Source of the DNA: a bacterium
GTDB taxonomy: Bacteria; RBG-13-61-14; DATKZS01
Reading direction: 5' to 3'
NCBI GenBank assembly: GCA_963674965.2
Contig: CAXXFL010000001.1
Coordinates: forward strand, 1,056,001-1,120,000
Length of the DNA stretch: 64,000 bases
Below the pieces are notes generated by a model that made no database searches, was not told the DNA's origin, and worked only from the letters and a program-made list of their open reading frames with translations. A program made the translations under genes and the position numbers. Positions 1,721 through 36,498 of this stretch are shown piece after piece (the stretch's first letter is position 1; each line of letters begins with the position of its first letter).

Positions 1721-1726
1721 AGGGAG

Positions 1727-3058: not shown

Positions 3059-3122
3059 GCCGAGGCTTCCGGGATATCGCCGTGAAGGGTTATCTTTTTC
3101 AACGCGGGGTCTCGAGCAACCA

Positions 3123-6044: not shown

Positions 6045-7453
6045 GAAAGAAACTGACTTCGCGGGTCTTTGTCCCGGCGTTGGCGGCGGTTATTTGTCTT
6101 CTGGCCGGCCTTGGACTGGGAGCCAAACAGGGAGCGTTCTGGACCGATGGCTCGGACCTTCCCGCGTCCTCCCGCGTGGACGTGGGTCCCAAAAGCATGG
6201 CCCCCCTGGCCAAGAAGACCATGCCCGGAGTGGTCACGGTCTATACCAAACGAAAAGCGGTGGGCTACTTCTTCTTCGCGCCCGTCCCCTACGTGCAGGA
6301 GGGCTCGGGCAGCGGCTTTATCATCTCTTCCGACGGCTACATAGTGACCAACAACCACGTGGTGGCCGACTCCACCAGCATCAAGGTGGTGGTGGGGGTC
6401 GAGGAAAAGGACGAGTACGACGCCCGCCTGGTGGGCAAGGACCCGGACACGGACGTGGCCCTGATCAAGATCGAGGCGGACAACCTTCCGGTTCTTCCCC
6501 TTGGGGACTCGGAGGCCATCGAGGTGGGCGACTGGGTGGCGGCCATAGGAAGCCCCTTTAACTTCGCCCACACCTTTACCGTGGGCGTGGTCTCGGCCAA
6601 GGGCAGGCGCCTGGGCGTGGGCAACTACGACGACTTCATCCAGACCGACGCCTCCATCAACTCCGGCAACTCCGGCGGCCCCCTCGTCAACATGCGCGGC
6701 GAGGTGGTGGGGGTCAACACCATCATCGTGTCCCCCTCCGGCGGCAACGTGGGCATAGCCTTCGCCATTCCCATCAACCTGGTCAAGGCGGTCCTTCCCC
6801 AGATACGGGAAACGGGCAAGGTCACCCGGAGCTGGCTCGGCGTCTCGGTGGACGACGTTTCCAAGGAACTCGCGGACAGGATCGGTCTCGACTCTCCCAG
6901 CGGGGCCCACGTGGTGAGGCTGGTGGTCGACGGCCCCGCCGACCGGGCCGGCATCGAGGTCAACGACGTGATCGTCGACTTCAACGGCCGCCGCATCGAG
7001 GACTCGGGCGACCTTCCCATGGCCGTGTCGGCCTTCGGAGTGGGCCGCCAGGCGGAGATCACCTGGATAAGGGACGGCAAGAAGATGACCAGGACCATCG
7101 AGCTCGAGGCCATGCCCAGCGGGCGGGAGATGGCCTCCTATGAAGTGAAGGGGCAGGCTTCGACCGACAATATCCTCGGCCTTGGCGTCACGGACCTCTC
7201 GGAGGACGAGGTAAGAGGCTCGGGCGGAATATACGGCGGCGGCGTGAAGGTGGCCGAGGTCAAGCCCGGGAGCCTGGGCCAGCGCTACGGCCTGTCGCCT
7301 GGTGACGTGATCCTCAAGATCAACCGCTACGAGATAAACGACGTGGACGACTTCGAGAAGGCCGTGAGCAAGATCGATCCCGGCTCATTCGTCAAGATAA
7401 CCGCCAGGCGAGGCGGCATGATAATGAAGAAATCCTTCAGCGTGCCCCGCTGA
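6041..7453 (+). CDS. HtrA/DegP-DegQ family periplasmic serine protease with two PDZ domains
   Basis: TNNHVV, DTDVAL, QTDASINSGNSGGPL; start at 6041 (AAGGAG RBS, ATGA overlap with upstream gene). Confidence 0.93.
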   Translation: MRKKLTSRVFVPALAAVICLLAGLGLGAKQGAFWTDGSDLPASSRVDVGPKSMAPLAKKTMPGVVTVYTKRKAVGYFFFAPVPYVQEGSGSGFIISSDGYIVTNNHVVADSTSIKVVVGVEEKDEYDARLVGKDPDTDVALIKIEADNLPVLPLGDSEAIEVGDWVAAIGSPFNFAHTFTVGVVSAKGRRLGVGNYDDFIQTDASINSGNSGGPLVNMRGEVVGVNTIIVSPSGGNVGIAFAIPINLVKAVLPQIRETGKVTRSWLGVSVDDVSKELADRIGLDSPSGAHVVRLVVDGPADRAGIEVNDVIVDFNGRRIEDSGDLPMAVSAFGVGRQAEITWIRDGKKMTRTIELEAMPSGREMASYEVKGQASTDNILGLGVTDLSEDEVRGSGGIYGGGVKVAEVKPGSLGQRYGLSPGDVILKINRYEINDVDDFEKAVSKIDPGSFVKITARRGGMIMKKSFSVPR

Positions 7454-7471
7454 AAACCGGAGAATCCGGTA

Positions 7472-9037
7472 TTAATGCGCCCCGGGGGGCGGGCCGCCCT
7501 TGGCGGGACGGAAGAGGAGGACGAGGGGAACGACGAGAAGGGTGAACAGGAACATGACGAAGAAGACGTCGTTAAAGGCCATCATCATGGACTGCCGTAC
7601 GATCTGTCCGTAAAGTCCGCCGGTGGCGGCGGCCTCGGAGAAGGCGGGGGGCACGCCTCGGGAGAAGAGGTAATGGGAGTAGGTCGAGAGGGCTTGGCCG
7701 ATCTGGGGGTCGGCCAAGTCCAGGCGCTCGACCATCCGGAACTGGTGATGCTGGGCGCGCTGGGACAGAAGCGTCGAGCTCACGGCCACGCCGATGCTGG
7801 CGCCCACGTTGCGAAGGAGGTTGAAGATGCCCGTGGCGTTGCCCATCTGCTCCTTGGGAATCCCGGCCACGGTCAGGGTGGTAAGGGGCACGAAAAAGAA
7901 GGCCATGCCTATGCCCTGAATGACGCGGGGTAAAATGACGGAATGGAAATCGGCGGACAGGTTGAAGTGGGCCATAAGGAAAATCGAGCCCGCGGAGATG
8001 GAAAGCCCGGTCATGAGGATCGGGCGGGCAAAGCCTCGCTGGGAGAGCATGCCGGAAAGGGGCAGGAACAAGAGGGTGGCCGCTCCACCCGGTCCCAGTA
8101 CCAGCCCCGCCTGCACGGCGGTGTAGCCCATTAGCTTCTGAAGATAAAGGGGCAAAAGAACGATGCTGGAGAAGAAGGCCAGGAAGGTAAGGAACATGAG
8201 CGAGTTGCCCACCGCGAAGGACCGGTCCTTGAATGCCCGCAGGTTGACGATGGGCTCGTCCGTCATGTAAAGCTCCCACCAGATCAGGAAAAGGATTCCC
8301 GCGGCGGCCAGCACGGCAAAGAAGATAATGAACCGCGAGGCGAACCAGTCCTCCTGGTTGCCCTTGTCCAGGATGAGCTGGAGGGAACCGATGCCCACGG
8401 CCAGAAGGCCCATGCCCACGGCGTCGATCTTGGAGCGGGCCACCTTCAAATAGGGCGGGTCCGTGACCACCGCCGCGATGGCCAGGACCGAGACGATTCC
8501 AACCGGCACGTTGACGTAGAAAATCCAGCGCCAGCTAAGGTGGTCCGTGATATACCCTCCCAACAGCGGCCCGAAGATGGGGGCCGTCACCACCCCCATG
8601 CCATAGAAGGCCATGGCCGTGCCTCGCTGTTCCATGGGAAAGCTCTCGAGGAGTATGGCCTGGCTCATGGGCTGCATGGCACCCCCCATGAACCCCTGCA
8701 TTATCCGGCAGAAGATGAGGAAATACAGGGAGGGCGCGGACCCGCAAAGGAAGCTGAAAAAGGTGAACCCCGCCACGCAGGCCATGAGGAACCTCTTGCG
8801 CCCGAAGGTCTGGGCCAGCCATCCGGTCATGGGCAGGATGATGGCGTTGGCCACCAGGTATGAGGTCAGGACCCAGGTGACTTCCTCGAGCCCGGCGGAC
8901 AGGCTTCCCTGAATGTGGGTAAGGGAGACGTTGGCCACCGAGGTGTCGAGAATCTCCATGAAGGTGGGCGTCATCACGGTGACGGCGACGAGCCACTTGT
9001 TGGACGCCACGTATTCCTGGCCGGGGGGAGCGCTCAT
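7472..9037 (-). CDS. emrB: DHA2 (EmrB/QacA) MFS efflux permease
   Basis: MEILDTSVANVSL, WVLTSYLVANAI, WRWIFYVNVPVG; multi-TM protein. Confidence 0.9.
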   Translation of the reverse strand: MSAPPGQEYVASNKWLVAVTVMTPTFMEILDTSVANVSLTHIQGSLSAGLEEVTWVLTSYLVANAIILPMTGWLAQTFGRKRFLMACVAGFTFFSFLCGSAPSLYFLIFCRIMQGFMGGAMQPMSQAILLESFPMEQRGTAMAFYGMGVVTAPIFGPLLGGYITDHLSWRWIFYVNVPVGIVSVLAIAAVVTDPPYLKVARSKIDAVGMGLLAVGIGSLQLILDKGNQEDWFASRFIIFFAVLAAAGILFLIWWELYMTDEPIVNLRAFKDRSFAVGNSLMFLTFLAFFSSIVLLPLYLQKLMGYTAVQAGLVLGPGGAATLLFLPLSGMLSQRGFARPILMTGLSISAGSIFLMAHFNLSADFHSVILPRVIQGIGMAFFFVPLTTLTVAGIPKEQMGNATGIFNLLRNVGASIGVAVSSTLLSQRAQHHQFRMVERLDLADPQIGQALSTYSHYLFSRGVPPAFSEAAATGGLYGQIVRQSMMMAFNDVFFVMFLFTLLVVPLVLLFRPAKGGPPPGAH

Positions 9038-10065
9038 TTGCCGGTTGCTTCCTCGCCTTCCTCCACCAGTATGACGGGGACCACGCTCATGCCGATCCGG
9101 AGCGGATGGGCCTCGAGGTCCGCGTCGACGACCTTGATCCGCACGGGCACGCGCTGGACCACCTTGATGTAGTTGCCGGTGGCGTTCTCCGGAGGCAGCA
9201 GGCTGAAGGCCGCGCCGGTGCCGGCCATGATGCTCTCGACCTCGCCCTTGAACTTCACTCCCGGGTAGGCGTCCACCTTGAATTCGACTTTTTGGCCCGG
9301 CCGAACGTCGGTCAGGTCCGTCTCCTTGTAGTTGGCCGTGACGTGAACGCCCTCCAGCGGAACGATCGACATGATCGGCTGGCCCGCGGCCACCACCTGG
9401 CCAACGTAAACGTTCTTGCGCGTAACGTAGCCGGACGCGGGCGACGCGACCGACGTATACTCGAGCCGCAGGGCTATGCGGTCCACCTGCGCCCGCGCCA
9501 GCTGCACGGCGGACTCGTCTCCCTCCTCGTCCGGCAGCCCCAGCGTGGTCTCGACCTGCTTGCGCTGGTTATTCGCCGCCTCGATCTGGGCGTTGATCGC
9601 GTCCACCTGCGTCTTCACCCGGTCGTAGTCGTCCTCCGACACGTGCCGGCCGTTAAGCAGGCGGGACAGCCTTCCTTTCTCCTTTTCCAGGAGCGCCTTT
9701 TGCGCCTCGAGGGCCTCCGTCTGCGACCTGATTACCTCGATGGCCGCCCGCTGGCCAGCCACCTGGTTCTTCACCACCTCGAGGTTCTTTTGCGCCACCG
9801 CGAGCTCCGCCTCCAGGTCCTTGGGCTCGAGACGGGAAAGGACCTCCCCCGCCTGGACCAGTTGGTTCGAACGGACCGGGACCTCGATGACTCGTCCCGG
9901 AATCTGGAAACTGACAGGATATATGTCGCCCTCGATGAAGGCGTCGTCGGTGATAATGTGGGTCGACCGATAATCCAGATACCACGCGATCCCGCCGATG
10001 ACGGCGAGGAGGAGAAATAAAAGGACAACGCCTATCGCTTTCTTTTTCTTTTTTTCTTCCGCCAT
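9034..10065 (-). CDS. emrA: EmrA/HlyD-family membrane fusion protein
   Basis: TDDAFI, ANYKETDL, GTGAAFSLLPPENATGNYIKVVQRVPVRI; overlaps the emrB start. Confidence 0.9.
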   Translation of the reverse strand: MAEEKKKKKAIGVVLLFLLLAVIGGIAWYLDYRSTHIITDDAFIEGDIYPVSFQIPGRVIEVPVRSNQLVQAGEVLSRLEPKDLEAELAVAQKNLEVVKNQVAGQRAAIEVIRSQTEALEAQKALLEKEKGRLSRLLNGRHVSEDDYDRVKTQVDAINAQIEAANNQRKQVETTLGLPDEEGDESAVQLARAQVDRIALRLEYTSVASPASGYVTRKNVYVGQVVAAGQPIMSIVPLEGVHVTANYKETDLTDVRPGQKVEFKVDAYPGVKFKGEVESIMAGTGAAFSLLPPENATGNYIKVVQRVPVRIKVVDADLEAHPLRIGMSVVPVILVEEGEEATGK

Positions 10066-10334
10066 TATTTATAGCCTCATACGATTTTCGAGTAATCTTT
10101 CCGCCGGCGGGGCGCCCGAAAAAGCCCGCCTGCCGCGTCCGGGCGGCCGGGCGGAATGATTTCCATGGGTGACAGGAAGTTAACACCTTTTCCCATAAGC
10201 TTCAATAGCGGCGTAAGGTCCGCTGAAGGGGCGGATTTGCCCGCCTGGGGCGAGTGGTGACGATACGGGACACAAGCGGGACCTTCATAAGCGTTTCCCG
10301 ATAGTTTCATGGAATGGGCGGGGTAAAAAAATAG

Positions 10335-11069
10335 TCAATCGAGCCTGAACCTGAAGGTCTTGGTCCTGGACTCGGTGACGGGCGCTCCGTTCTCGGTCCC
10401 GGGGAAAAAGGTCCATGACTTGACGGCCGCGATGGCCGCGTCGTCGAGCACGGGAAAGCCCGAGCTTTGCACGACGTAGACGTCGCCCACGCCGCCGTCG
10501 CCGAGTATCTCGTAGCTGACGGTCACGTCGCCGGCGATGTCCCGCCTTTTGGCCATGGCCGGATAGGCCGGACTTGGACAACTGGCGCACTTGGCCTTTA
10601 CCACCGCCGGCTCGGCGGGATAATAGTCCGCGCCCCGGGTGGCGCCGGGTCCGGTCACCGCGTCGTCGGGAGGGTCCGGCTCGAGACCGATGGGGCTCGA
10701 GGCCCCCGAGTCCGCGCGCTCGGGGTTCACTCCCCTTTGCTCGGCGCTCGAGCGCGTGGCGGTGACCGTCTTCTTTTTCGCGGGAAAGGGCTGATCCGCG
10801 TTCTTTCTTTCCGAGGTCAGAGCGGGCATGGGCTCGGGTTCCTTCTCCGGCTCGGCCTTCTCGTCCATCTGGGGAAAAGGGGTCGGTTTTTCGGCCATGC
10901 CGGCCTCGGCCCCCCTAGCGCTCAGGTGGATGAGCTCGACCAGGAGAAGGCCAGGCATCTTCAGGGGGCCCGACGTCCCCCCCAGCGCCCCCGCGAAGGT
11001 AATCAGGGCCAGAAGGTGAAGGCATATGGAAATAGTAAGCGCGTATATAAAGCGCGTCCTCGGCGACAT
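10335..11069 (-). CDS. tonB: Energy transducer TonB
   Basis: TM with SxxxH (SICLHLL), EP-rich linker, YPAMAKRRDIAGDV, SSGFPVLDDAA; start at 11069 preferred over 11126. Confidence 0.85.
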   Translation of the reverse strand: MSPRTRFIYALTISICLHLLALITFAGALGGTSGPLKMPGLLLVELIHLSARGAEAGMAEKPTPFPQMDEKAEPEKEPEPMPALTSERKNADQPFPAKKKTVTATRSSAEQRGVNPERADSGASSPIGLEPDPPDDAVTGPGATRGADYYPAEPAVVKAKCASCPSPAYPAMAKRRDIAGDVTVSYEILGDGGVGDVYVVQSSGFPVLDDAAIAAVKSWTFFPGTENGAPVTESRTKTFRFRLD

Positions 11070-11263
11070 CTTCAATCCTCTCAGATCGAGTATAGATTCC
11101 CCGGCTCCGATAGTAAAGACGACCACGGGTCAAGCTCGGTTTCAAAGGCCGCGTCGCGTCCCGCCGGCTCCCTGTCTTTAATGGCCGGTATAAGTCTGGT
11201 ATCATAAATGATTTATGATACTCCGACGACTCTGACCGGCCGTCGGGGGAATCTCGCGGACCC

Positions 11264-13075
11264 ATGGAAGAAAAGGGATTAGTCAAGCGCCTTCCCGACT
11301 GGTTTCGGAAAGGCAAGATGTCCAGGTGGATCGTGCTGGGCGTGATCGTGGGAGTGATCAGCGGCCTGGGGGCGGCGGGTTTCTTTTTTCTGCTCGAGCT
11401 TTCCAAGGAGTTCACCTTCGGCCGGCTGGCCGGATATTACATGGCGACGCCCACCGGCGAAAAGCTCTTTCCCGCGCCCCAGGACATGGTCTTCAGGCGA
11501 TGGGTGTTTTTTATTCTTCCCGCGGTGGGCGGCCTCATCTCGGGGCTGATCGTTTACCGCTTCGCTCCCGAGGCCGAGGGACACGGCACGGACGCCATGA
11601 TCGACGCCTTCCATAACAACGAGGGCTCGATACGGGGCCGGGTGCCCTTCGTCAAGGCCGTCGCCACCATTTTCACTCTCGCCACCGGGGGCAGCGCGGG
11701 CCGGGAGGGACCCATAGCCCAGATAGGGGGAGGGATCGGCTCTTGGATCGCCAAGGCCCTCAAGCTTCCGGCCCAGGACAGGCGGATTCTGCTGCTGGCG
11801 GGGACCGGCGGCGGACTGGGCGCCATATTCCGCGCTCCCCTCGGGGGCGCCATCACGGCCATCGAGGTCATCTACAAGGAGGACCTCGAGACGGACGCCC
11901 TTATACCTACCGTCATATCCTCGATCACGGCCTATACCATCTACTCCCTCATCTTCAAGCACGTGTTCGACTTCAGTCCCATTTTCGAGATCAGCAAAAG
12001 CATCACCTTCAACGACCCGCGCGAGCTGATTTTCTACGTGATCCTGGGTCTGGTGTGCGTGCCGGTGGGCGTGGTTTACATCAGGGTTTTCTACGGGCTT
12101 CGCGATAAGGTCTTCCGGCCCATGCCCATACCCAATTATCTTAAGCCCATGATCGGCGGCCTGATGGTGGGAGTCATCGGCCTTTACGTTCCCGAGATAT
12201 ACAGCGGGGGGTGGGGACAGCTTCAGCTCGCCATTAACGGCCAACTGGCGCTCAAGCTGATGCTGATGATCGTGGTCTTCAAGATACTGGCCACCAGCCT
12301 GACCATCAGCTCGGGCGGGTCGGGCGGGGTGTTCGGCCCAACCCTCATGATCGGCGGCATGCTGGGAGGGGCCATCGGCGTCATCTCGATGAAGTACTCC
12401 GGCGGGATCATCGACCACGTGGACGCCCGCGCCTTCGTGCTGGTGGGAATGGCCGCCTTTTTCGCGGGCGTGGCCAACGCGCCCCTCGGGGCACTCCTCA
12501 TGGTCACGGAGATGACCGCCGGCTACCGGTTGGTGGCCCCCCTCCTCATGGTCTCCATGATCGCCATGATCTTCACCCGCCGTTACTCGATTTACGAAAA
12601 ACAGGTTAAGAACAAGTTCTCCAGCCCGGCCCACGCGGGAGAGTTCACGATCAACGTCCTCGAGGAGATGCGGGTCAAGGACGTGTACAAGCCCAAAGAG
12701 GGGATTTTCACCATCCCCGCCTCGGCCCGGTTCGCCGAGGTCCAAAGGTGCCTGGCCAACGAGGAGATCGAGGTCTGGCCCGTGGTCAGGGAAGACGGGA
12801 CCATCGTCGGCGTGCTCAGCCTGGACACGACCAAGCCCATCCTCTTCGAGGACGGCATGGACCAGATACTTAACGCCGCCGACCTCGCCATACCAGCGGC
12901 CCACGTCCATCCCACCGACTCCCTGTACCAGGCCCTCATCGAGTTTCTTAAGTACCCCATCTCGGAAATACTCGTGGTCGACAACGACGATGAAAACGAG
13001 ATACTCGGGGCCCTCGCCCACCGCGACCTAATCCGCGCTTATAACAAGGAAATCATCGCCCGGAAAGGAAAATAG
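11264..13075 (+). CDS. ClC-family chloride channel/antiporter with C-terminal CBS domains
   Basis: EAEGHGTD, GSAGREGP, GGSGGVFGP, SIYEKQ, CBS pair. Confidence 0.92.
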   Translation: MEEKGLVKRLPDWFRKGKMSRWIVLGVIVGVISGLGAAGFFFLLELSKEFTFGRLAGYYMATPTGEKLFPAPQDMVFRRWVFFILPAVGGLISGLIVYRFAPEAEGHGTDAMIDAFHNNEGSIRGRVPFVKAVATIFTLATGGSAGREGPIAQIGGGIGSWIAKALKLPAQDRRILLLAGTGGGLGAIFRAPLGGAITAIEVIYKEDLETDALIPTVISSITAYTIYSLIFKHVFDFSPIFEISKSITFNDPRELIFYVILGLVCVPVGVVYIRVFYGLRDKVFRPMPIPNYLKPMIGGLMVGVIGLYVPEIYSGGWGQLQLAINGQLALKLMLMIVVFKILATSLTISSGGSGGVFGPTLMIGGMLGGAIGVISMKYSGGIIDHVDARAFVLVGMAAFFAGVANAPLGALLMVTEMTAGYRLVAPLLMVSMIAMIFTRRYSIYEKQVKNKFSSPAHAGEFTINVLEEMRVKDVYKPKEGIFTIPASARFAEVQRCLANEEIEVWPVVREDGTIVGVLSLDTTKPILFEDGMDQILNAADLAIPAAHVHPTDSLYQALIEFLKYPISEILVVDNDDENEILGALAHRDLIRAYNKEIIARKGK

Positions 13076-13111
13076 GGGACCGGTCGCGCCGCTCGCTCGA
13101 TCGATTTTTTC

Positions 13112-13140
13112 TTGACAAGACGTCTGAAAACCGTTAAGCT
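13112..13140 (+). promoter_or_regulatory. Sigma-70 promoter upstream of the cobalamin riboswitch
   Basis: TTGACA-N17-TAAGCT. Confidence 0.65.
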
Positions 13141-13166
13141 GATTTTACTGAAAATATAAAATACAT

Positions 13167-13319
13167 CGTTTCGGTGCCTTCGTGTTAAAAGGGAAGATGG
13201 TGAAATTCCATCACGGACGCGCCACTGTAATCGGTTTTACGCTCTCGAAAAAGCCACTGGGAAAAAACCCCGGGAAGGCCGAAGAGATACAGCCGTAAGT
13301 CAGGAAACCTGCCGGAACG
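13167..13319 (+). promoter_or_regulatory. Cobalamin (B12) riboswitch
   Basis: Closing helix cgtttcgg/ccggaacg; GGTGC...AAAAGGGAA; GGTGAAATTCC; GCCACTGTAA; AGCCACTGG...GGGAAGG; B12-box AGTCAGGAAACCTGCC. Confidence 0.93.
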
Positions 13320-13371
13320 TTCTTCACGCCGCTTCCTCGCGACAGGGAAGGTGAAGGGAAACCAGGAATTT

Positions 13372-13404
13372 CCCCGACGCTTCAAGGCGGTCGGGGTTTT
13401 TTTT
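13372..13404 (+). terminator. Intrinsic terminator forming the riboswitch expression platform
   Basis: CCCCGAC...GTCGGGG stem followed by T8. Confidence 0.8.
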
Positions 13405-13680
13405 CGCCGGCGAAAAGCCGGAAACGGCGAGCGTCACGGCCTTGACGGGAGGCCGTCCGTTATATTCCTCCCACGGGAATATCGGGCTTGAAATATAGGC
13501 GCGAAGGACAGGGGGGCCGGGTTTCGGCCTCGATGATCCCGACGCTTTTTCATGGTCCCTCCCGAGGAGTGGAAAAAAATGCATGAAAGGTTCGAATCCG
13601 GCGGGGCCGGCGGTGAGATTCAGCGCATGATCGAATATAATCGATATTTTACTCAAGACGATCACGTAAAGGGGGCCGTT

Positions 13681-15804
13681 ATGCCTTTGAATCTTTCCGC
13701 GTCTCTCGGGTTTAGAAGTTTTTCCCGGGCCCGCCGTCCTCTAGTTCTGGCGGCGTGTCTTTTACTTTTCCCCAGCCTTCGGACCCTGGCCCAGACGGGC
13801 GGGCCTTATCCCATGCCCGCGCCGATCGCCTCCCCCTCGGAGGACGGCGCCCAGGGGGATGACGATTCCGAGACGATCGCGCCCTCGGAAGACGATACCG
13901 TCATTTCTCCCTCCGAGGGCGTGGCCGAGGTGACGGGGGAGTCGGGCGTGGACCTTGGCCAGCGCCTGGACGAGACCGCCGCCCCCATGGTGGTGGACAT
14001 GAACGACCATCCCCTCACGGGCGCCCGCCTGGCCGAGGCCCTGGAGGGCGTCCCCGGCGTTCAAGTGCTCGAGAGCGGGGGGGAGGAAGGCCCTTGGCAG
14101 ATCATGATCCGGGGCGGCGACCCCCGCGGCGTGGCCGTGTACTTCGACGGAGTGCTCATCTCCGACCCGGTGGGACGGCGGGTGGACGTCTCCCACGCCC
14201 CCGTGTTCCTGATCGACAGCGTGCGTATCTATAAGAACACCGCCCCCGAGGGATACCCGGTCTCGGGCGGGTACGGCGTTATCGACTTCAGGACCAAGGC
14301 CGCCTCGAGTTCCCCCTCTTTGGAGGCGAGACTCGAGGCCGACGACCTCTCGACGCTCGAGGTTTCGGCCTCGGTGAGCGACGCGGCCATGGGAGGATCG
14401 GCCCTTCTTGGGCTCTCGGAGAAAAACGGGCCCGGCCGCTTCGATTACGAGAGCGACGCGGACGAGGACCGGACCCGCTCGAACAACGCCTTCGAGCAAC
14501 ACGACGTGCTTATTAAATACGACAGGAGAGTGGGCGGCTTCAGGCTGTACGCGGCGACCCTGTATCAAAGGACGTCCCACCAGCTTCCCGGACCCGACGG
14601 GGCCGAGGCCGACAAGGCGGAGGAGGGAGGGGAGTTCCTCATTTCCTACGCCGGCTTGAGGCGTCCCGGCGTCCTGGACCCGAACCTGGACGCCGAGATC
14701 AGGGTCCATTACCTGCTCGATCAGTCATGGTTCGACGACTCGAGGGGGGAGCTTGGTCCCGCCCGGGACGAGCAGTACGGAAGATACCGGCTGGGCACGG
14801 AATTGTTCTTCGATTATTACGGGCTACCGGGCAACTGGCTGTCGTGGCGGCTGGCGCTTTTCGAGGACTGGTACGAGCCCTTCAGCAAGCTCGACTCCCG
14901 GGTCAACGACCTGGAATATCAAAGGTCCAGCGTCTATTTCACCGTGGCCGACGAGCTTTCGCTCTTTGACGACGCCATCCTGATCAAGCCGAGGGTGAGG
15001 TACGCCTATGAGGCCAACTCCTATGGAGGGCCCTCCCTCCTGGAGCAAAGCGGGGAGGAATTCAACTCCACCAGCTTCTCGAACGTCACCGTCGAGGTCA
15101 ACGTGGCCTACCAGTTCCTCGAGGACCTCACCATCAGCGGCCACGTGGGCCAGTTTTTCCGCTCGCCCAACATGCTCGAGGAGTACGGCGACGCGACCGA
15201 GATAATGGGCAATCCTTACCTTAGCCCGGAAAGGACCCTGTCCCAGGAGATCACCGCGGCCTACGATCCTGGCGTCGTCTGGCTGCTGGACAAGTTCGAC
15301 GCTCGGGTGACGGTGTTCGAGAACAAGACCTATAACCGGATCGGCTGGACGGCCCTTCCCGGAGGAATAGTACAGGCCACGAACCTGGGGGAGGCCCGTG
15401 TCTCCGGCGTCGAGGCCTACGCCCGGTTCAACATGCAGGACATACTGGCCGTCAAGGCCTCATACACGTACCAGGACAGCAGGATGATGTCGGACGATCC
15501 CGAAATCGACCGCGGCCGCGTGCCCGGCGTTCCCCTTTCCCAGGGCGGGATCACGGCCATGCTGTTCCAGCCTTACGGGAAGGTTTACTACGAGGGTTTT
15601 TATCAGGGAGAGCGCTGGCTTGACGAGGCCAACGACGTCAAGGCCGATCCCCGCCTGATCCATAACGCGGGCGTGGTTTACTACTGGGGACGGGGAAGCG
15701 TTGGGTTCAAGGCCGTGAACATAGGGGACGAGCGGTCGAGGGAGGTCCTCGACTATCCGCTGCCCGGAACGCGGTACATAGTTTCAGTGGAGGTAATCGA
15801 ATGA
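13681..15804 (+). CDS. TonB-dependent outer-membrane receptor, BtuB-like cobalamin importer
   Basis: Signal peptide, plug ([13 protein letters not shown]...IMIRG...[10 protein letters not shown]), [11 protein letters not shown]...GNPYLSPE, C-terminal YPLPGTRY; downstream of a B12 riboswitch; start at 13681 preferred over 13552. Confidence 0.85.
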
Positions 15805-17420
15805 AAGGGTTTGGATCGAGGGTGGTTTTCTTTATTTGTCTGATCGCGGCTTGGGGACTTGCGGGCGCGGCCCCGGCGGCCCCCGAGCTTATCAACTATC
15901 AGGGACGCTTAACGGACGCCTCGGGAGTTCCGCTCGACGGCGTGACGGTCGACTTGAGCTTTACCTTCTACGGCGCCGAGACGGGAGGGACGGCCTACCT
16001 GACGGTCATCCAGGAGGACGTCCTGGTCGGAGGCGGCATCTACTCGGTGCTGATCGGCTCCGGCTCGATCGTGCCCGGAACCAGGTCCAGCCTGTCCGAC
16101 CTTTTCCTGTCCTATGACCGGCTCTACATGGGAGTTAGCGTGGACGACGACCCCGAGATGGTCCCCCGCCAAAGGATCACCAGCGCGCCCTATTCCCTCA
16201 GCGTGGACCCCAGCTTTATCGACCGGTTCATTAACGACGCCGACTTCGACGGCGACGGCTACGACAAGCTCTCGCAAGGCGGCTCGGACTGCGACGACGG
16301 CTCGGCCTCGGTGTATCCCGGCGCTCCCGAGGTCCCCTGCGACGGCGTGGACCAAGACTGCGACGGGGAGGACTCGTGCAGGCTCTTCGTCGCGTCCACC
16401 GACTACATGGGCAATAACGTCGTATACCACGGGACCCTCGACCCCGCGGGACTGGACCCCGCCTTTCTGGACCAGACCACCCTGGGCGCGGACCCTTCCC
16501 TCGACCCGGTCCTCACCTACCGGGAAAACACGGGCGGCGGCTGGCCCAACGTGATCCAGAGAGAGGGGTGGAGCGGATCGGGACTGGGAACCATCGACAG
16601 GCTCGACCCCTCGAGCGGCTTCACCGTTGGCTTGTCGTTTATCGTGAACGACGGGACCAACTCGGCCAACCCCCAGGACATGCTGGTCATATCCTCTTCC
16701 AAGGCCTACGTCACGCGCTTCGAGGGACCTTATAACGACGCGCTTATAGTGGACCCCTCCAGCGGGACGACCCTGGGAAGCATTGACTTGAGCTCCCTGG
16801 CCACCAACTCCGACGGCCTGCCCCGAGCCGCCAGGATGCTCATGGTTGGAAGCACGGTCTACGCGCTCATCCAGGATATCAACAACTATTTCAGCGAGTA
16901 CGGAAAGGGAAAGATCGCCGTGATCGACCCGGCCTCGGACTCCCTCTCCGGCTCCATAGAACTGACCCTGAAGAACCCGACCAACTTTTTTTACCAGGCC
17001 CCGCAAAACCGGCTGGTGGTCGCCTGCGCCGGCGACTGGGCCGACTCGAGCCTCAGCGGCATCGAGCTGGTCGACCTCGCGACCCTGTCATCCGACACCG
17101 TGCTCGTGAGAGGAAACGACCCGGCGGTAAGCGGCTTTATCACCGACGTGGTCGACGTGGGGGGGGGCAAGGCCATGATGCTTATGACGACCTTGTCTTA
17201 TACCAACGAGATACGTCCATTGAGCCTGGGCACGGGGGCCGTGGGCGCGTCGGTCTACGCCTCGAGCTACGTGGCGGACATAGACAAGGACGGGTTTGGA
17301 CGCCTGCTGATAGCGGACAACTCCGGGTCCTCGATAGTGATCATGGAAACGGCCAGGTACACCGTGGTGGACGCCGCGGCGCTCGTCACGCCGCCCCAGT
17401 CGGTGATGAACTGGTACTAG
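15801..17420 (+). CDS. Secreted modular protein: 'YQGRL' N-terminal domain, Asp/Cys metal-binding motif and YncE/BtuG-like beta-propeller
   Basis: Signal peptide; [10 protein letters not shown]...[51 protein letters not shown] propeller; ATGA-coupled to the receptor. Confidence 0.75.
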
Positions 17421-17547
17421 GGCTCGGGCCGGGGAAGGCGTCCGCGTAGGGCATCCCTGTAAAGGTTTGGCGGACCGTCTTCCCCGGACCATGGCTTCTT
17501 TTTCACGGCCCTCTCCAAGAGCGGCGCGGACCCTGATAAAGGAAAGA

Positions 17548-20500
17548 ATGGTCATGCTGACAAGGAACAAATGGGCGCTTTGCACGTCCCTCTCGGTCGT
17601 GGTTATCTGGTTGTGCCTCTCGGAAAGGGCGCTGGCCTGGCCCGACTGCAACGCCGACGTGGTGGCCGGCTTCACCCCCTCCGCCGCCGCGACCTTCGGG
17701 CACGCGAACATGCCCGACGTGGTCCTGGGCTGGCCCGGCTCCTCGAGCATCGGAAACGGCTCCATGGACGTGGTCTCCCTCGGGTCAGGAGGAGTCATCA
17801 TCCTCGAGTTCACCGACAATGTCATCGTGGACGGACCCGGCCCCGACTTCATCGTGTTCGAGAACTCCTTTTACGTGACTCCCTATCCCGCCTCCTGCTA
17901 TGACGATTACTACTCCTTCGTCGAGCCCTTTTTCGTCGAGGCGAGCGATGACGGGGTAACCTGGAAGCGGTTTCCCTACGAGGGAACCACCATCGAGCCG
18001 GTTCCGGGCGACAGTTGCTTCAACCTGTTCCCGAGGGACTGGGGATCCATGAGTTCAAAGCCGGTGATCGAAAGGTGCGCCGGACTGGGTGGACTTGGCC
18101 CCTCTTACGACTCTCCGAGGAACCGCATCATCGCCGACGACCTCTCGAGGTGGGACCGGCGCGGCGAGCTGGGGGTTTCCGGCTGGGGCGGAGACGCCTT
18201 CGACCTGGCCGCGGTGGGCCTGTCCCAGGCAAGGTACGTCAGGCTCGAGGCCTTCGAGGTGGCCGTCGACTCCAGCATGGCCAGCTCGGACATAGACGCG
18301 GTGATAGCTCTTCACGCCGCTCCCGCCCCTGGTTCGACCGCGGACTCGGACGGCGACGGGCTGTCCGACGATGAGGAGTCGGCCATGGGCACCGACCCGG
18401 GATCTCCGGACACTGACGGCGACGGCGTCGGCGACGGCGTCGAGGCCGCCTCCTGCCTTTGCCCGCTTATTTACGGCGACACTCTTCTCGGGATCGACGT
18501 GGACGTTCTTACGGGCGACACGGACGCGGACGCCTTCGTGGACTGCTACGACAATTGCCCGGACGTGTCCAACGCCGGGCAGGAGGACGCCGACGCCGAC
18601 TTTTTAGGCGACGCCTGCGAGGCGGCTTACGGCGCGAGCGTCTCGAACCCCGACACCGACGGAGGGGGCATGCTCGACGGGCTCGAGGTCAAGGCCGGCC
18701 TGGACCCGACCAATCCAAATGACGACGTGGTCCCCGGATCGGACTCGGACGGGGACGGGCTGACCGACTACGCCGAGATCAACGTCTACTTCACCGATCC
18801 GTTGGAAAAGGACACGGACGGCGACGGCTTCACCGACTACGAGGAGGAGATACTCTATCCCTGCCTGGACGCGATCGACCCCGACACCGACGGCGATGGA
18901 TTGTGCGACGGCGACGCGGCGGTTTACGACGGCGCGACCCTATTATGCGCCGCGGGCGAGGACTACGACCTGGACGGACAACTCGCGTGCGGGCTCGAGA
19001 CCGATCCCTGCGAAGTCGACACGGACGGCGACGGTCTGGGCGACGGCGACGAGGCCCTTCTCATAGGCACGGACCCCGCCCTTTCCGACACCGACCTTGA
19101 CGGAGTGAAGGACGGCGACGAACACGGCGCCGGCTCGAACCCCATTGACCCGGTCATAACGCCGAGCGTCGAGAAGGTCTCCGGCGAGGCCAGGCTTACT
19201 TACGCGACCGGTTATTCCCGCTATTCGGCGGCGGCCTGGACCGGCTCGGAGTTCGGCGTGACCTGGGAGGACAACCGGGACGGCAACTACGAGATTTACT
19301 TCGCGAGGCTTGACGCTGACGGCGACACCCTTGGCCTCGAGACCAGGCTGACCTTCGACGCCAACTACTCGTACAGGTCCGACGTCGTCTGGACCGGCTC
19401 CGAGTACGGCGTGGCCTGGTACGACCGGCGGGACTCGAGCAATTATGAAATCTACTTCCTCCGGGTCTCGGAGGCCGGGGCCAAGATCGGCTCCGACGTC
19501 AGGTTGACCTTCGACGCCAACTATTCCTATAACCCCTCCCTGGCCTGGACCGGCTCCGAGTACGGCGTGAGCTGGCACGACCGGAGGGACCTGGACTACG
19601 AGATTTACATGGCCCGCATCGGACCGGACGGGGTAAAGATCGGCTCCGACCTGCGCGTCACGGACGACGACGATTATTCGTCCCGCTACTCCTCGCTGGT
19701 CTGGACCGGCTCCGAGTACGGGCTGGCCTGGGAGGATACCAGGTCGGACGGCGACTACGAGATTTATTTCACGCGGGTAACCGCCGAGTTGACCAAGCCC
19801 GGCCCCGACCTTCGCGTCTCCTTCACCGAGGATACCTCGACTTATCCGTCACTTACATGGACGGGAAGCCGGTACGGCGTGGCCTGGCACGACAACCGGG
19901 ACGGCAACTACGAGATTTATTTCGCGTCGGTCGAGGCGGGAGGTCTCACCGCCGGTCCCGAGACTCGGGTCACGCGGGACGGCCAGTCGTCCATGTATCC
20001 GTCCCTGGTCTGGACCGGAAGCGAGTACGGCGTCAGTTGGGACGACAAGCGCGTGGACGGCAAGGACAAGGTCTTTTTCGCCCTGCTCGATGAGGACGGC
20101 GAAAAGATCGGAGCGGCCCACCGCGTGTCCTCCGGCTCGGAGTACGCCAAGCAGTCCGACCTGGTATGGGCCGACGGCAAGTTCGGCGTGGCCTGGGAGG
20201 ACAGCTCCTCGGGCAATTACGAGGTAACCTTCGCCGTCTTCGAGACCGACTCCGACGGCGACGGCCTCCTGGACCTTTCCGGGGAGCCGGTTTACTCGAC
20301 GGACCGCCTGGACTGGGACACGGACGACGACGGCTCGAGGGACGGCGTGGACTGCGACGGAAACAACTCTAATACCTGGGACACCTGCGCCACCTGCGTT
20401 GACGGAGACTCGGACGGATACCTCGAGCTTTGCAACCTTTACGAGGGCATAAACGGTCCCGACTGCGACGACGAGGATATAGACAACTGGGTCACCTGCG

Positions 20501-21525
20501 CCGCGGCCGACGCGGACGGCGACGGATGGTTCGTGGGATGCGACGCCTATGCCACGCGAAACGGTCCCGACTGCGAGGACGGCGACTCGGCCGTCAACCC
20601 GGGCCTTCCCGAGAGCATGTGCGACGGCAAGGACAACGACTGTAGCGCCGGCACGCCGGACGACCTGGACGCCGACTCCGACTCGCTTAACTACTGTACT
20701 GAGCAAGTCCTGGGCACGAGCGACGACGACTGGGACTCGGATGACGACTCCCTGCCCGACGCCTTCGAGGCCGCCAACATGACGGGGCACGGCGAAAACC
20801 TCGACCCGACCTCGTCGGCCGACGGCTGCTCGGCGGACTTTGACGGCGACGGCAACTCCAATTGCCACGAGTATTACAACGGGGCCGACCTATGGGCCGA
20901 GAACGTCCTCGGCGGCGCGGGATGCCGCTGCTGGGCCGACTCCGGCAGCACGGTGGGGGCCGACGGAGTGGTCTCGCCCCTGGACCTCTCGGCCCTGCAA
21001 TCGGTAGTCTCTCTCAAGACGGCCGTCTACACGGGAGTGCTGCCGCCCAACGGCGACACCCAGGAGCTCGACATGGACGAGTTGCCTTCACCCCTGGACG
21101 CCTCCATATTAAAGCAGATGGTGGTGCTGGCCAATACCTCCTCGAACCCGAGCATGCCTGCGGCCCTCTCCCTCGAGGGGGCAACCGTCGTCTCGGCCGC
21201 GGCGGGCGAGACCGTCCGGATTACGGTCCACGTCGTCAACCAGGGAGGAAAGAACACCGCCGGCATCGGCGTGGTCTTCGAGATCGACCCGGCCTCGACT
21301 GGCTCGGGCTTCCTGCTGGGCGGGGAGGGAAACGCGGGAGGCGCTACGCGCTATGACGTTTCCGGACCCATCGCCGAGGGAGGCAAGTCCTCGATCGTGG
21401 TCATGGCCGAGTCGGCCGGCGATATCGTCGTCAACGCGAGCGTGCCCGAGTGCGGCTCGGGGGGCGTGGGAAGATGGGCGCCCTCCATCGAGGTCCAGCC
21501 GCTCCTTACCATACAGGTCCAATAA
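17548..21525 (+). CDS. Large secreted multidomain surface protein: BtuH-like domain, TSP3-like Ca-binding repeats, 7-repeat propeller, dockerin-like and Ig-like C-terminus
   Basis: ATG at 17548 after AAGGA; signal ERALA|W; VSLGSGGVIILEF..IVDGPGPDFIVFEN..GGDAFDL; many DxDGDG repeats; seven WTGSEYGVxW-type repeats; paired SPLD motifs. Confidence 0.8.
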   Translation: MVMLTRNKWALCTSLSVVVIWLCLSERALAWPDCNADVVAGFTPSAAATFGHANMPDVVLGWPGSSSIGNGSMDVVSLGSGGVIILEFTDNVIVDGPGPDFIVFENSFYVTPYPASCYDDYYSFVEPFFVEASDDGVTWKRFPYEGTTIEPVPGDSCFNLFPRDWGSMSSKPVIERCAGLGGLGPSYDSPRNRIIADDLSRWDRRGELGVSGWGGDAFDLAAVGLSQARYVRLEAFEVAVDSSMASSDIDAVIALHAAPAPGSTADSDGDGLSDDEESAMGTDPGSPDTDGDGVGDGVEAASCLCPLIYGDTLLGIDVDVLTGDTDADAFVDCYDNCPDVSNAGQEDADADFLGDACEAAYGASVSNPDTDGGGMLDGLEVKAGLDPTNPNDDVVPGSDSDGDGLTDYAEINVYFTDPLEKDTDGDGFTDYEEEILYPCLDAIDPDTDGDGLCDGDAAVYDGATLLCAAGEDYDLDGQLACGLETDPCEVDTDGDGLGDGDEALLIGTDPALSDTDLDGVKDGDEHGAGSNPIDPVITPSVEKVSGEARLTYATGYSRYSAAAWTGSEFGVTWEDNRDGNYEIYFARLDADGDTLGLETRLTFDANYSYRSDVVWTGSEYGVAWYDRRDSSNYEIYFLRVSEAGAKIGSDVRLTFDANYSYNPSLAWTGSEYGVSWHDRRDLDYEIYMARIGPDGVKIGSDLRVTDDDDYSSRYSSLVWTGSEYGLAWEDTRSDGDYEIYFTRVTAELTKPGPDLRVSFTEDTSTYPSLTWTGSRYGVAWHDNRDGNYEIYFASVEAGGLTAGPETRVTRDGQSSMYPSLVWTGSEYGVSWDDKRVDGKDKVFFALLDEDGEKIGAAHRVSSGSEYAKQSDLVWADGKFGVAWEDSSSGNYEVTFAVFETDSDGDGLLDLSGEPVYSTDRLDWDTDDDGSRDGVDCDGNNSNTWDTCATCVDGDSDGYLELCNLYEGINGPDCDDEDIDNWVTCAAADADGDGWFVGCDAYATRNGPDCEDGDSAVNPGLPESMCDGKDNDCSAGTPDDLDADSDSLNYCTEQVLGTSDDDWDSDDDSLPDAFEAANMTGHGENLDPTSSADGCSADFDGDGNSNCHEYYNGADLWAENVLGGAGCRCWADSGSTVGADGVVSPLDLSALQSVVSLKTAVYTGVLPPNGDTQELDMDELPSPLDASILKQMVVLANTSSNPSMPAALSLEGATVVSAAAGETVRITVHVVNQGGKNTAGIGVVFEIDPASTGSGFLLGGEGNAGGATRYDVSGPIAEGGKSSIVVMAESAGDIVVNASVPECGSGGVGRWAPSIEVQPLLTIQVQ
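19180..20250 (+). repeat. Seven ~51-aa coding repeats (WTGSEYGVxWxDxRDGNYEIYF)
   Basis: Visible in protein and in DNA (TGGACCGGCTCCGAGTACGG recurs); boundaries approximate. Confidence 0.85.
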
Positions 21526-21557
21526 TCGGCGAGCGTTACCATGCCAAACCTTCGCCG

Positions 21558-21591
21558 GAGGGCGCGGCGGCTTCACGGCCGTCGCGCCCTC
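21558..21591 (+). terminator. GC-rich hairpin closing the B12 operon
   Basis: GAGGGCGCGGCGGC/GCCGTCGCGCCCTC stem; weak U-tract. Confidence 0.45.
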
Positions 21592-23791: not shown

Positions 23792-23867
23792 GCAGGAGTA
23801 GCTCAGTTGGTAGAGCCCCACGTTGCCAACGTGGTTGTCGCGGGTTCGAATCCCGTCTCCTGCTCCA
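23792..23867 (+). tRNA. tRNA-Gly (GCC)
   Basis: GCAGGAG/CTCCTGC acceptor stem, anticodon arm CCACG-TTGCCAA-CGTGG, GGTTCGAATCC, encoded CCA. Confidence 0.97.
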
Positions 23868-23874
23868 TTTTCTT

Positions 23875-23949
23875 GGCGGCATAGCCAAGTGGTAAGGCGA
23901 TGGTCTGCAAAACCATTATTCACCGGTTCGAATCCGGTTGCCGCCTCCA
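23875..23949 (+). tRNA. tRNA-Cys (GCA)
   Basis: GGCGGCA/TGCCGCC acceptor stem, anticodon loop CTGCAAA, GGTTCGAATCC, encoded CCA. Confidence 0.97.
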
Positions 23950-35079: not shown

Positions 35080-36498
35080 ATGAAGGAAAATGGACCTTTA
35101 ATCATTCTCACGGCCCAGCGGGTCTGGATGTACCGCAAGTTCCCGCCCTACGGCATTATGTACGTGGCCCGGGGGCTTCGGGAAGCCGGGTTCAGGGTCA
35201 GGATAATCCATCCCGAAACCGGCCGCGCCGGCGCCGTGGCTGAGGCCGTTAAAAAGGAGCGGCCCCTTTTCGTCGGCTTCAGCGTCATGCAGGGACCGCT
35301 TCTACTCGAGGACGTCGAGATATCTCGCGCCTTGCAAAAAGAAGGCATCCCCGTGGTATGGGGCGGCATCTTTCCCTCCATGCTGCCCGAGCTGGTCCTT
35401 TCCGCCGACTACGTCGATTACATCGTGACCGGCGAGGCCGAGTTGACCTCCGTCCAGTTCGCCCACGCCCTCGCCTCCGGCAAAAAGCCGGAGAACGTGG
35501 CGGGAGTCGGATACAGGGAAGACGGCGGCGTACGTCTCAATCCACCGGACCCGTTCCATAAGGACATCGACTCCTTTCGTCCGGACTGGGACCTCATCCG
35601 GATGAAAACATACCTCGAGGTATACCCCAAGTCCCAAAGCGTGCTCCTGCGCGTGCCCCTCTCGAGGGGATGCCCTTTCCCCTGCTCCTTTTGCTACAAC
35701 CAGGTGCAAAAAGACCGCAAGCTCTTCCGCATCCACGGCCACGAATGGGTAAGGCGCGAACTGGACTTCTTAAAGGACAAGTGGGGCGTCAACATGGTCC
35801 ACTGGGTGGGCGACAACCCCTTCTCGAAGCCCGAGGTGGGAAAAGAAATCATCGGCGCCGCCAAAACCCCCTGGATAAGCGCCACTCGAATCAACCTGGT
35901 GGACGAGGAATTCACGAGCTGGATGAAGGAAACCCAATGCCAATACCTCGGCTTCGGCATCGAAAGCGGCTCGGACCGGGTGCTCGAGATACTGAAGAAG
36001 GGCTTCACCGTCGACACCATAATAAAGGGCATCGGACACCTCGACAAGGCGGGCGTCTTCGGCGTGCTCAGCTGGATGCACCTTATCCCCGGCGAGACCA
36101 ACGAGGACAGGAAGATGACGCGAAAGCTCATGGACGAACTTTACCGCATGACCCCCCGGATATATCATAGCGGCGTCCATGGCCTGCGCCCGTGGCCGGG
36201 AACGATCTTTTGGGACGAGGCGGTCAAGATGGGTCTCGAGCCGCCCCGGACCCTCGAGGACTGGGCCCATTACCAGTACGTCAGCCCGCCCCTGTTTGGA
36301 TGGACCAAGGAGAGGCTCTACCGTTTGACGGTCATGAACCGCGTGCTTTACGGCCGGGCCAGGACCGCTCCACGCCTCGTGCCCGACTGGCAATACGAAA
36401 TCTTCCGGAGAAGATTCCTCCGCGGAAAATTCCCCGGCGCCCTCGAGGAAAAACTGGCCGCAAGTCCGCGCCTGAAAAAACACCTCGAGGATTTATAA
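35080..36498 (+). CDS. B12-binding-domain radical SAM protein (class B methylase-like)
   Basis: PPYGIMYVA, VVWGGIFPS, GEAE, SRGCPFPCSFC, GIESGSDRVL. Confidence 0.9.
   Translation: MKENGPLIILTAQRVWMYRKFPPYGIMYVARGLREAGFRVRIIHPETGRAGAVAEAVKKERPLFVGFSVMQGPLLLEDVEISRALQKEGIPVVWGGIFPSMLPELVLSADYVDYIVTGEAELTSVQFAHALASGKKPENVAGVGYREDGGVRLNPPDPFHKDIDSFRPDWDLIRMKTYLEVYPKSQSVLLRVPLSRGCPFPCSFCYNQVQKDRKLFRIHGHEWVRRELDFLKDKWGVNMVHWVGDNPFSKPEVGKEIIGAAKTPWISATRINLVDEEFTSWMKETQCQYLGFGIESGSDRVLEILKKGFTVDTIIKGIGHLDKAGVFGVLSWMHLIPGETNEDRKMTRKLMDELYRMTPRIYHSGVHGLRPWPGTIFWDEAVKMGLEPPRTLEDWAHYQYVSPPLFGWTKERLYRLTVMNRVLYGRARTAPRLVPDWQYEIFRRRFLRGKFPGALEEKLAASPRLKKHLEDL

Follow-up and report, generated by a model that had tools for sequence, protein, structure and literature searches.

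What is taken up, and by which proteins, when a cobalamin riboswitch stands in front of genes for a TonB-dependent receptor and two large secreted proteins? The question is raised by an operon in a stretch of bacterial DNA of 64,000 nucleotides (nt), positions 1,056,001 to 1,120,000 of contig CAXXFL010000001.1 (assembly GCA_963674965.2), which is referred to below as the window. The analysis indicates that this operon probably encodes a vitamin B12-repressed system for corrinoid uptake across the outer membrane, of the BtuB-BtuG-BtuH type known from Bacteroides, in an organism that does not belong to Bacteroidota. Corrinoid binding by either of the two secreted proteins, and a location outside the outer membrane rather than in the periplasm, are inferred by analogy with those systems.

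The riboswitch aptamer matches the Rfam cobalamin model over its full length (positions 1-189 of 189) with 110.2 bits, against a gathering threshold of 31.5, and an E-value (E) of 9.9e-27; it is one of three Rfam hits across the window, the other two being tRNAs. The expression platform starts 42 nt 3' of the aptamer as a hairpin in which CCCCGAC (13372-13378) pairs with GTCGGGG (13390-13396), followed by eight T residues (13397-13404), and the same hairpin appears in the predicted minimum free energy (MFE) fold. It was overlooked by the consensus terminator scan because its loop is longer than 8 nt. The whole 86-nt piece that contains it is no stabler than shuffled sequences (z = -0.9), and the terminator call therefore rests on the classical hairpin-plus-U-run shape. 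Since hairpin and T tract follow the aptamer, the riboswitch is, as predicted from sequence and fold, of the transcription-terminating, B12-off design. Riboswitch and terminator had both been named in the original prediction, made from the sequence without database searches, and both are borne out. Its promoter was recovered in part, as a possible one: TTGACA is present at 13112, but the candidate -10 hexamer, TAAGCT, agrees with the consensus at only 3 of 6 positions and no promoter was called in the consensus scan of the region, so that the promoter is weaker than had been implied.

Downstream of the riboswitch lie three co-oriented open reading frames (ORFs), at 13552-15804, 15801-17420 and 17467-21525 (Table 1). 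An ATGA overlap at 15801-15804 joins the stop codon of the receptor gene to the start codon of the second gene, which encodes a protein of 539 amino acids (aa). The third ORF can be read as 1352 aa from a TTG at 17467 or as 1325 aa from an ATG at 17548; the ATG, preceded by AAGGAAAG, is more probably the start. The second and third genes are separated by 127 nt, and the consensus scan called no terminator-like site between them. In the closing hairpin the stem consists of 15 perfect pairs; the 100 nt at 21526-21625 fold with -55.4 kcal/mol (z = -3.8), and none of 200 shuffled sequences was as stable. The layout proposed earlier, consisting of a receptor, an ATGA-coupled 539-aa protein, a 1325-aa protein and a closing hairpin, was recovered at about the same positions.

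Table 1. Features of the B12 operon and of two genes outside it, in window coordinates.
Feature	Position	Strand	Evidence
Candidate energiser gene tonB	10335..11126	-	Pfam TonB_C 1.2e-21
Possible sigma-70-type promoter	13112..13140	+	TTGACA 13112-13117, 17 nt, TAAGCT; by eye, weak -10
Cobalamin riboswitch aptamer, RF00174	13155..13330	+	Rfam
Expression platform: intrinsic terminator, 7-bp GC stem and T8	13372..13404	+	Sequence, MFE fold
TonB-dependent receptor, BtuB-like by context	13552..15804	+	Pfam Plug and barrel
539-aa protein, N-terminal part: signal peptide, beta-rich module, MopE-type Cys motif	15801..16376	+	Translation, Pfam
539-aa protein, residues 193-539: seven-bladed beta-propeller homologous to BtuG	16377..17420	+	AlphaFold2, Foldseek, profile
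1325-aa protein, residues 1-262: signal peptide and jelly-roll domain X	17548..18333	+	AlphaFold2, Foldseek
1325-aa protein: acidic TSP3-type Ca-binding repeat region	18343..19107	+	Pfam TSP3_bac 7e-19, 6 stretches
1325-aa protein: seven ~52-aa repeats (WTGSEYGVAW...YEIYF)	19201..20322	+	Regular-expression count; weak beta_prop_Msarc repeat match
1325-aa protein: Cys-rich TSP3/MopE region and C-terminal CARDB-like Ig domain	20248..21525	+	MopE 3.7e-6, CARDB 1.4e-3
Closing GC-rich hairpin, 15 bp, weak T tract after it	21558..21591	+	Fold
B12-binding radical SAM enzyme, B12 consumer	35080..36498	+	Pfam B12-binding 7e-18 and Radical_SAM 4e-21

The C-terminal part of the second gene's product is distantly related to BtuG by sequence profile and matches it closely in modelled structure. 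For the 539-aa protein, the AlphaFold2 (AF2) model, calculated from an alignment of 35 rows, has a mean predicted local distance difference test (pLDDT) value of 89.3, with most of the propeller above 90 and the linker at 52-71, and the ~28 strands in residues 193-539 make up seven blades. In a Foldseek search of the PDB, the BtuG family takes 13 of the first 14 listed rows (E 8e-14 to 5e-12), namely BtuG3 with cyanocobalamin (8okv), BtuG2 (8bai, 8bmy, 8bmz, 8ptf, 8bn0, 8bmx_D), BtuG1 (8blw_B, 8ptd) and the Bacteroides uniformis homolog 3dsm. For 12 of these 13 rows the target-normalised template modelling (TM) score is 0.72-0.78, with a root-mean-square deviation (rmsd) of ~4 A; the remaining one, 8blw_B, whose 626-residue chain also carries a BtuH domain, reaches 0.41. 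The rows after the BtuG family are YncE (TM 0.68), AztD, and XusB (0.60).

Pairwise identity between the propeller and the BtuG chains is 11-15%, and the relationship is undetectable without a profile. When a profile of 24 family members (A2) was used, nine BtuG-family chains were the top 9 of 30 matches (E 1.1e-11 to 2.8e-9); BtuG3, at 1.1e-11, was aligned end to end, the other BtuG chains scored 1.8-2.8e-9, and the first match outside the family was an NHL repeat at 1.1e-5. The proposal that this protein is an equivalent of BtuG, for which a comparison of structures had been suggested, is upheld by the grouping of the propeller with BtuG1, BtuG2 and BtuG3 and by the reach of the profile. The alignment was also inspected at the corrin-contact residues of BtuG2 listed in PMC13616437, the numbering being deduced as chain index plus 31, with which 5 of 5 checkable residues agree. 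Ser-131 and Gln-219 align to the family-invariant Asn of two N-P motifs of the window protein, N290-P291 and N392-P393, while Ser-195/Tyr-196 fall in a loop of other length and Tyr-239 aligns to an Asp beside a Trp. This residue-level comparison of sequences can be taken as a hint but not as proof.

Homologs of the propeller are numerous: at E <= 1e-3 there are 923 representative clusters, and at <= 1e-10 still 272. Its stand-alone relatives (~380 aa) are lipoproteins: a canonical lipobox was present in nine of ten inspected, the tenth having its Cys in a poorer context, and the lipobox Cys column is more than 90% conserved in the 24-row family alignment. Two members (P0110, P0119) carry the type IX secretion system (T9SS) sorting domain PF18962, and others end in a FlgD_ig-type domain. 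In 26 members scanned with Pfam, most of which have the propeller well downstream of the N-terminus, none has a known B12 domain fused to it, and the only hits were Lactonase/DUF5074-type propeller, P_proprotein and FlgD_ig. DUF5074 matches the window propeller weakly (E 0.014) and is unconfirmed as the Pfam family of BtuG, and it is not used as support here. NCBIfam holds no model for the propeller family, 6 of 24 members matching a generic YVTN repeat, and tblastn found no match to the propeller or to domain X, the N-terminal jelly-roll of the 1325-aa protein, in plasmids.

The same families occur together in other genomes. A genome scan with one peptide pattern, taken from a 10-sequence alignment, matched 45 stretches, two of which encode a relative; the window's own genome was not among the matches. 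The survey thus comprises three loci including the window, the other two having been found by similarity to the window locus: L001, in a metagenome-assembled genome (MAG) of Candidatus Polarisedimenticolia, and L002, in a MAG from Acidobacteriota. L001 has its own cobalamin riboswitch (4848-5047, 83.5 bits in Rfam), which is followed by a 336-aa ORF, a domain-X protein, a receptor and a propeller lipoprotein. The domain-X protein (413 aa, 6121-7362) shares 46% identity with the window domain across 282 aa (E 1e-48), the TonB-dependent receptor gene (~7359-9356) is overlapped by the propeller gene, and the propeller lipoprotein (520 aa, 9353-10915) has 37% identity. In L002 the contig breaks off within the domain-X gene, whose product is 43% identical (E 1e-40); the receptor (~1021-3069) and then the propeller lipoprotein (520 aa, 3066-4628) follow, again encoded by overlapping genes. 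Both Acidobacteriota propeller proteins carry a canonical lipobox. The propeller, receptor and domain-X families are therefore adjacent in three of three loci, in two gene orders, and a cobalamin riboswitch was found in each of the two loci that include the upstream sequence (the window and L001); the L002 record lacks the region in which one would be expected. The window receptor matches the riboswitch-linked receptor of L001 only, and not a second receptor gene of that locus at 12334-15966. A neighbourhood survey had been suggested as a check, and within this very small one both related loci carry the same trio, one of them with a riboswitch of its own.

Genes for a FecCD permease and an ATP-binding cassette (ABC) ATPase lie convergently 2-5 kb downstream in both Acidobacteriota loci (L001 15999-17893 and L002 6622-8599, both on the minus strand), and they may provide the inner-membrane half of the pathway. 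BtuC belongs to the FecCD-type permease family, as do iron-siderophore permeases. Some further features of these loci were recorded. The 447-aa ORF beside the FecCD/ATPase genes of L002 (5279-6622, minus strand) has no Pfam hit, and neither has the 336-aa ORF between the riboswitch and the domain-X gene of L001 (5114-6124), which showed no similarity to the L002 domain-X protein or the 1325-aa window protein, the only two compared; it may encode another accessory protein under riboswitch control, or not be a gene at all. An apparent fusion of domain X and receptor in L001 was an artefact of ORF listing, the two being separate genes in different frames. The propeller lipoproteins of L001 and L002 have an extra domain of ~180 residues between lipobox and propeller, without a Pfam match and unlike the N-terminal module of the window protein.

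The 1325-aa protein starts with a signal peptide ending ALA|W, and its conserved domain X covers residues ~30-262. The acidic region behind it has DxDxDG motifs and 21-32 Asp plus Glu per 100 aa. The seven ~52-aa repeats, judged from their sequence, probably form a second seven-bladed propeller; a dockerin match in this protein was not significant (0.08). Domain X itself has no Pfam model, and a Pfam scan of 36 family members gave nothing beyond TSP3. Its sole named relative is the NCBIfam family of the Leptospira lipoprotein LIC_13355, a weak match of 31 bits against a cut-off of 120; ESM Atlas look-ups, at 0.84 and 0.76 below the trustworthy level, returned the names 'LIC_13355 family lipoprotein' and 'cell surface protein'. 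The family is large (1112 matches at E <= 1e-3), nearly all members being stand-alone 'hypothetical proteins' of 360-430 aa with one TSP3 repeat. P0280 is 48% identical to the window domain, and the few homologs with a named source are mostly from Polarisedimenticolia or other Acidobacteriota records. No published function was found for the family.

The AF2 model of domain X, from a 36-row alignment, has a pLDDT of 78 and a predicted TM score (pTM) of 0.77. In Foldseek its first-ranked match is 8blw_B (E 8.2e-6), and ranks 2 and 4 are BtuH2 (7biz, 3.5e-4 and 5.3e-4). BtuG1 carries a fused BtuH domain, according to the available part of PMC10404256, and as no pure BtuG chain is in the domain-X list, the 8blw match must be to the BtuH part. 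The conserved acidic and Asn residues of domain X are compatible with a metal site. DUF4465 (BtuJ) matched no window protein and none of the 36 domain-X members, even at E 5-10. The 1325-aa protein, proposed earlier as an equivalent of BtuH, is a candidate for one: BtuH-domain entries lead the structural matches, but weakly, with TM ~0.4 and without a sequence link. Any likeness to BtuH beyond the shared jelly-roll is conjecture from the model.

The receptor has Plug (PF07715, 8e-12) and barrel (TonB_dep_Rec_b-barrel, PF00593, 4e-27) domains, as does BtuB, and like it stands under B12-riboswitch control. It probably starts at M44 (13681), which gives a signal peptide; a stretch of ~60 residues, acidic and rich in Pro and Ser, lies between the signal peptide and the Plug (13681-13970). 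Among solved structures its best sequence match is E. coli BtuB (3e-9), followed by the colicin I receptor CirA (3e-8) and B. thetaiotaomicron BtuB1 (8e-8). Close relatives are few: of 8 matches, five are at 43-44% identity; the orthologs include P0396-P0400, P0400 being 44% identical. For P0400 and for the domain-X homolog P0280 the longest contig on record has the same length, 11,886 bases, which may point to a fourth locus in which the two are linked. By sequence this is a generic TonB-dependent receptor, and its assignment to B12 therefore rests on the riboswitch and the partner proteins.

A number of observations weigh against a system of the BtuB-BtuG-BtuH type. The receptor scores far under the BtuB equivalog models (68.3 vs 599.7 bits for TIGR01779 and 56.4 vs 836 bits for NF007926), and two heme-type receptor models of NCBIfam score slightly above the B12 model, all far below cut-off. 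In Foldseek the propeller is matched first by a YVTN propeller from an archaeon (1l0q, target-normalised TM 0.60), the single 539-aa sequence matches no BtuG chain in phmmer, a narrow 10-sequence profile (A3) finds YncE (3e-4) slightly better than BtuG2 (5e-4), and 3 of the 5 mappable BtuG2 contact residues are not conserved. Read from its translation, the 539-aa protein lacks the lipobox of the lipoprotein BtuG; the 1325-aa protein has none either, and no surface-export route was identified for either of them. The match of domain X to BtuH is weak (TMq 0.38-0.41, rmsd >10 A), the netrin LamN domain, CBM32 and F5/8C follow at E 4e-4 to 1e-3, and a profile of 36 domain-X members finds no BtuH chain even at E 10. 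In the scan of 46 other window ORFs no btuFCD genes were detected. As to the neighbourhood evidence, one peptide pattern yielded two loci, and both belong to the same phylum.

The points concerning domain X lead to the possibility that only the receptor and the propeller serve B12, the 1325-aa protein being a co-transcribed adhesin or matrix protein whose jelly-roll binds a glycan or another surface ligand. In the structural search CBM32, F5/8C, netrin LamN and SUN domains come close to BtuH in score, domain X has no sequence link to BtuH or DUF4465, and a gap of 127 nt precedes its gene; in addition, the distantly related Leptospira LIC_13355 has been studied as an adhesin binding host components (available part of PMC11891782). 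The genomic arrangement is less easily accommodated by such a role. The domain-X genes adjoin the receptor gene in both Acidobacteriota loci in an order unlike that of the window, and linkage kept through a change of gene order argues for selection on that linkage; in L001, moreover, the domain-X gene sits between riboswitch and receptor, and in the window no terminator-like site was called before the third gene. On the linkage seen in these three loci, an adhesin role is considered quite unlikely.

The missing lipobox bears on where the propeller works. The original prediction held that the two secreted proteins lack an obvious lipobox and instead carry extra Ca-binding and anchoring modules; the missing lipobox and the presence of additional Ca-binding (TSP3) and other modules are borne out. 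The 539-aa protein has a Sec-type signal peptide (residues 1-23, cleavage at about AGA|AP), a beta-rich module at residues ~30-126 (window 15870-16180) and a MopE-type Cys motif at residues 163-191 (Pfam 1e-10), an architecture shared by one full-length ortholog (P0002, 52% identity). The beta-rich module also precedes other C-terminal domains, including FGE-sulfatase and LamG-type ones (P0003-P0008), and it resembles the NCBIfam model Bdello_MAT_N at 6e-5 (1.4e-7 for the ortholog), both under the cut-off. Its sequence suggests a general-purpose cassette for display or anchoring. In Bdellovibrio mosaic adhesive trimer (MAT) fibres, the N-terminal domain is expected by the authors of that family to lie near the cell surface, binding a surface element (PMC10769870). 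As the relatives are lipoproteins but the window proteins have ordinary signal peptides and extra modules, protein-based display or release would be expected for the latter.

The main rival explanation retains corrinoid import but makes the propeller a periplasmic protein, not an extracellular lid: it would accept B12 from the receptor, as a chaperone or binding protein replacing BtuF, and the lipid anchors of its relatives would face the periplasm, as they ordinarily do outside Bacteroidota. Such a BtuF-like shuttle would fit the presence of no more than a Sec-type signal peptide on the window propeller protein and the lack of a btuF gene in the operon or among the scanned window ORFs. It would also fit the fold matches to YncE and AztD, the former leading the narrow profile; both are periplasmic propellers. 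Lipoprotein lids are almost confined to Bacteroidota, and a guess offered in one paper is that other diderms lack the machinery to export lid lipoproteins to the surface, as far as the available portions of 10.1101/2023.03.17.533168 and PMC10404256 go. On the other hand, BtuG, the closest protein by fold and by profile, is surface-exposed (PMC6143338, available part), and the N-terminal module resembles the surface-proximal domain of MAT fibres (PMC10769870, likewise in part). Some family members carry extracellular features, such as the T9SS domain of P0110 and P0119 or a FlgD_ig-type domain, and modules of the kind usual in extracellular proteins, TSP3 and CARDB-like, are found in the 1325-aa protein of the same operon. 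On balance, a periplasmic propeller is regarded as unlikely.

The MopE motifs invite yet another explanation, that the substrate is cobalt or some other metal for use in B12 synthesis, with these Cys motifs and the acidic repeats as metal-binding parts. Cobalamin riboswitches also control cobalt transporters in B12 producers. MopE 'putative metal-binding' motifs are present in both accessory proteins, and two heme-type models give the receptor a marginally higher score than the B12 model does. However, it is the propeller and domain X that are conserved between the window and the Acidobacteriota loci, and no MopE hit was found in the propeller proteins of those loci or in the L001 domain-X protein; the propeller is homologous to a corrinoid binder, and no cob/cbi genes were found among the scanned window ORFs. 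Metal acquisition is therefore very improbable.

For the preferred reading, corrinoid uptake of the BtuB-BtuG-BtuH type, the following course of events can be proposed. At high intracellular B12 the aptamer would be stabilised, the terminator would form and the operon would be off; at low B12 the receptor, the BtuG homolog and the large 1325-aa protein would be made. The propeller would capture a corrinoid on one face and hand it over to the receptor, by analogy with the solved BtuBG complexes, and TonB, encoded 2 kb upstream, would power the import. Domain X could act as a second, BtuH-like capture or relay site within a Ca-stabilised multidomain protein. The ancestral lipid anchor would have been replaced, on the propeller by the MAT-fibre-like N-terminal module and on domain X by the TSP3/propeller/CARDB scaffold.

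Compared with known systems, the operon is most like BtuB-BtuG of B. thetaiotaomicron (8BLW, 8BMX, 8P97; BtuG2 is BT1954), with which it shares an upstream riboswitch and a receptor gene followed by a seven-bladed propeller gene. The propeller resembles BtuG in fold, in profile homology (E 1e-11), in the lipoprotein nature of its stand-alone relatives and in its position beside the receptor in a riboswitch-controlled locus. It differs in lacking the lipobox and in having a 190-residue N-terminal module with a MopE motif. The hosts also differ, as the related loci are from Acidobacteriota and the window encodes a flagellin, and a lid function in this organism is proposed by analogy. BtuH (BtuH2 is BT1956, 7BIZ; fused in chain B of BtuG1 8BLW) is likewise an accessory protein of a riboswitch-controlled btuB locus and has a beta-rich globular domain on repeated extracellular modules, which are PKD/Ig in BtuH2 and TSP3/propeller/CARDB in the window protein. 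Domain X, however, is N-terminal whereas the BtuH domain is C-terminal, is not part of a lipoprotein, and has no sequence similarity to BtuH. The E. coli BtuB system has the riboswitch control and the TonB-dependent receptor, with a tonB gene near the window receptor, but it lacks co-encoded capture proteins. YncD-YncE of E. coli and XusA-XusB of Bacteroides also combine a propeller gene with a TonB-dependent receptor; their substrates are iron-related, they have no B12 riboswitch, and they are weaker matches than BtuG in fold and in the 24-member profile.

Literature reports place such systems in Bacteroidota. In the available part of PMC6143338, BtuG homologs went undetected outside Bacteroidetes with the BlastP parameters used there; lipoprotein-capped transporters seem exclusive to Bacteroidetes in that of PMC10404256, and, for most putative lid pairs whose proximity is conserved, nearly every homolog comes from Bacteroidota in that of 10.1101/2023.03.17.533168. 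BtuH is described as mainly from Bacteroidota, with predicted homologs in three Firmicutes species, in the accessible text of a 2026 review (PMC13616437). Among the papers listed in searches on BtuG, DUF5074 and LIC13355, none described this kind of operon. If the assignment is correct, BtuG-type machinery with a second conserved partner would extend to Acidobacteriota, to the organism studied here (~60% GC) and to other environments, two large families of 'hypothetical proteins' would receive names, and new B12-binding scaffolds would become available together with a natural experiment in lid attachment without a lipid anchor. A broader proposal is made tentatively, with somewhat more doubt than confidence: lid-assisted, multi-protein corrinoid capture might be an ancient and widespread module of environmental diderms, of which the propeller and domain-X families would be the B12-binding parts; in this lineage the lipid anchor would have been exchanged for protein display modules, with B12 caught on a Ca-stabilised extracellular scaffold or by released proteins.

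Elsewhere in the window, the tonB gene and the radical SAM gene that had been predicted about 2 kb upstream of the operon and near 35 kb, as candidate energiser and B12 consumer, were both found, the latter with B12-binding and Radical_SAM domains (Table 1). The lack of btuFCD, noted originally for the operon, extends to the 46 other ORFs scanned, among which no cob genes turned up either; an ABC system at 39.5-42.2 kb is of the ZnuA / ABC-3 type. The named relatives of the modular window proteins are from Myxococcota, 'Deltaproteobacteria' and Planctomycetota records. Also present is hemA (3123-4172, minus strand), the gene of glutamyl-tRNA reductase, which carries out the first step of tetrapyrrole synthesis; by itself this gene is uninformative about B12 production. 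Two tandem tRNA genes (69.8 and 72.3 bits in Rfam) lie at 23792-23946, 2 kb past the operon. Two efflux-type gene groups on the minus strand are unrelated to it: an HlyD and MFS pair at 7472-10065, and an RND efflux operon at 47683-54096 that encodes a TetR regulator, an outer-membrane factor, a membrane-fusion protein and an AcrB-type pump.

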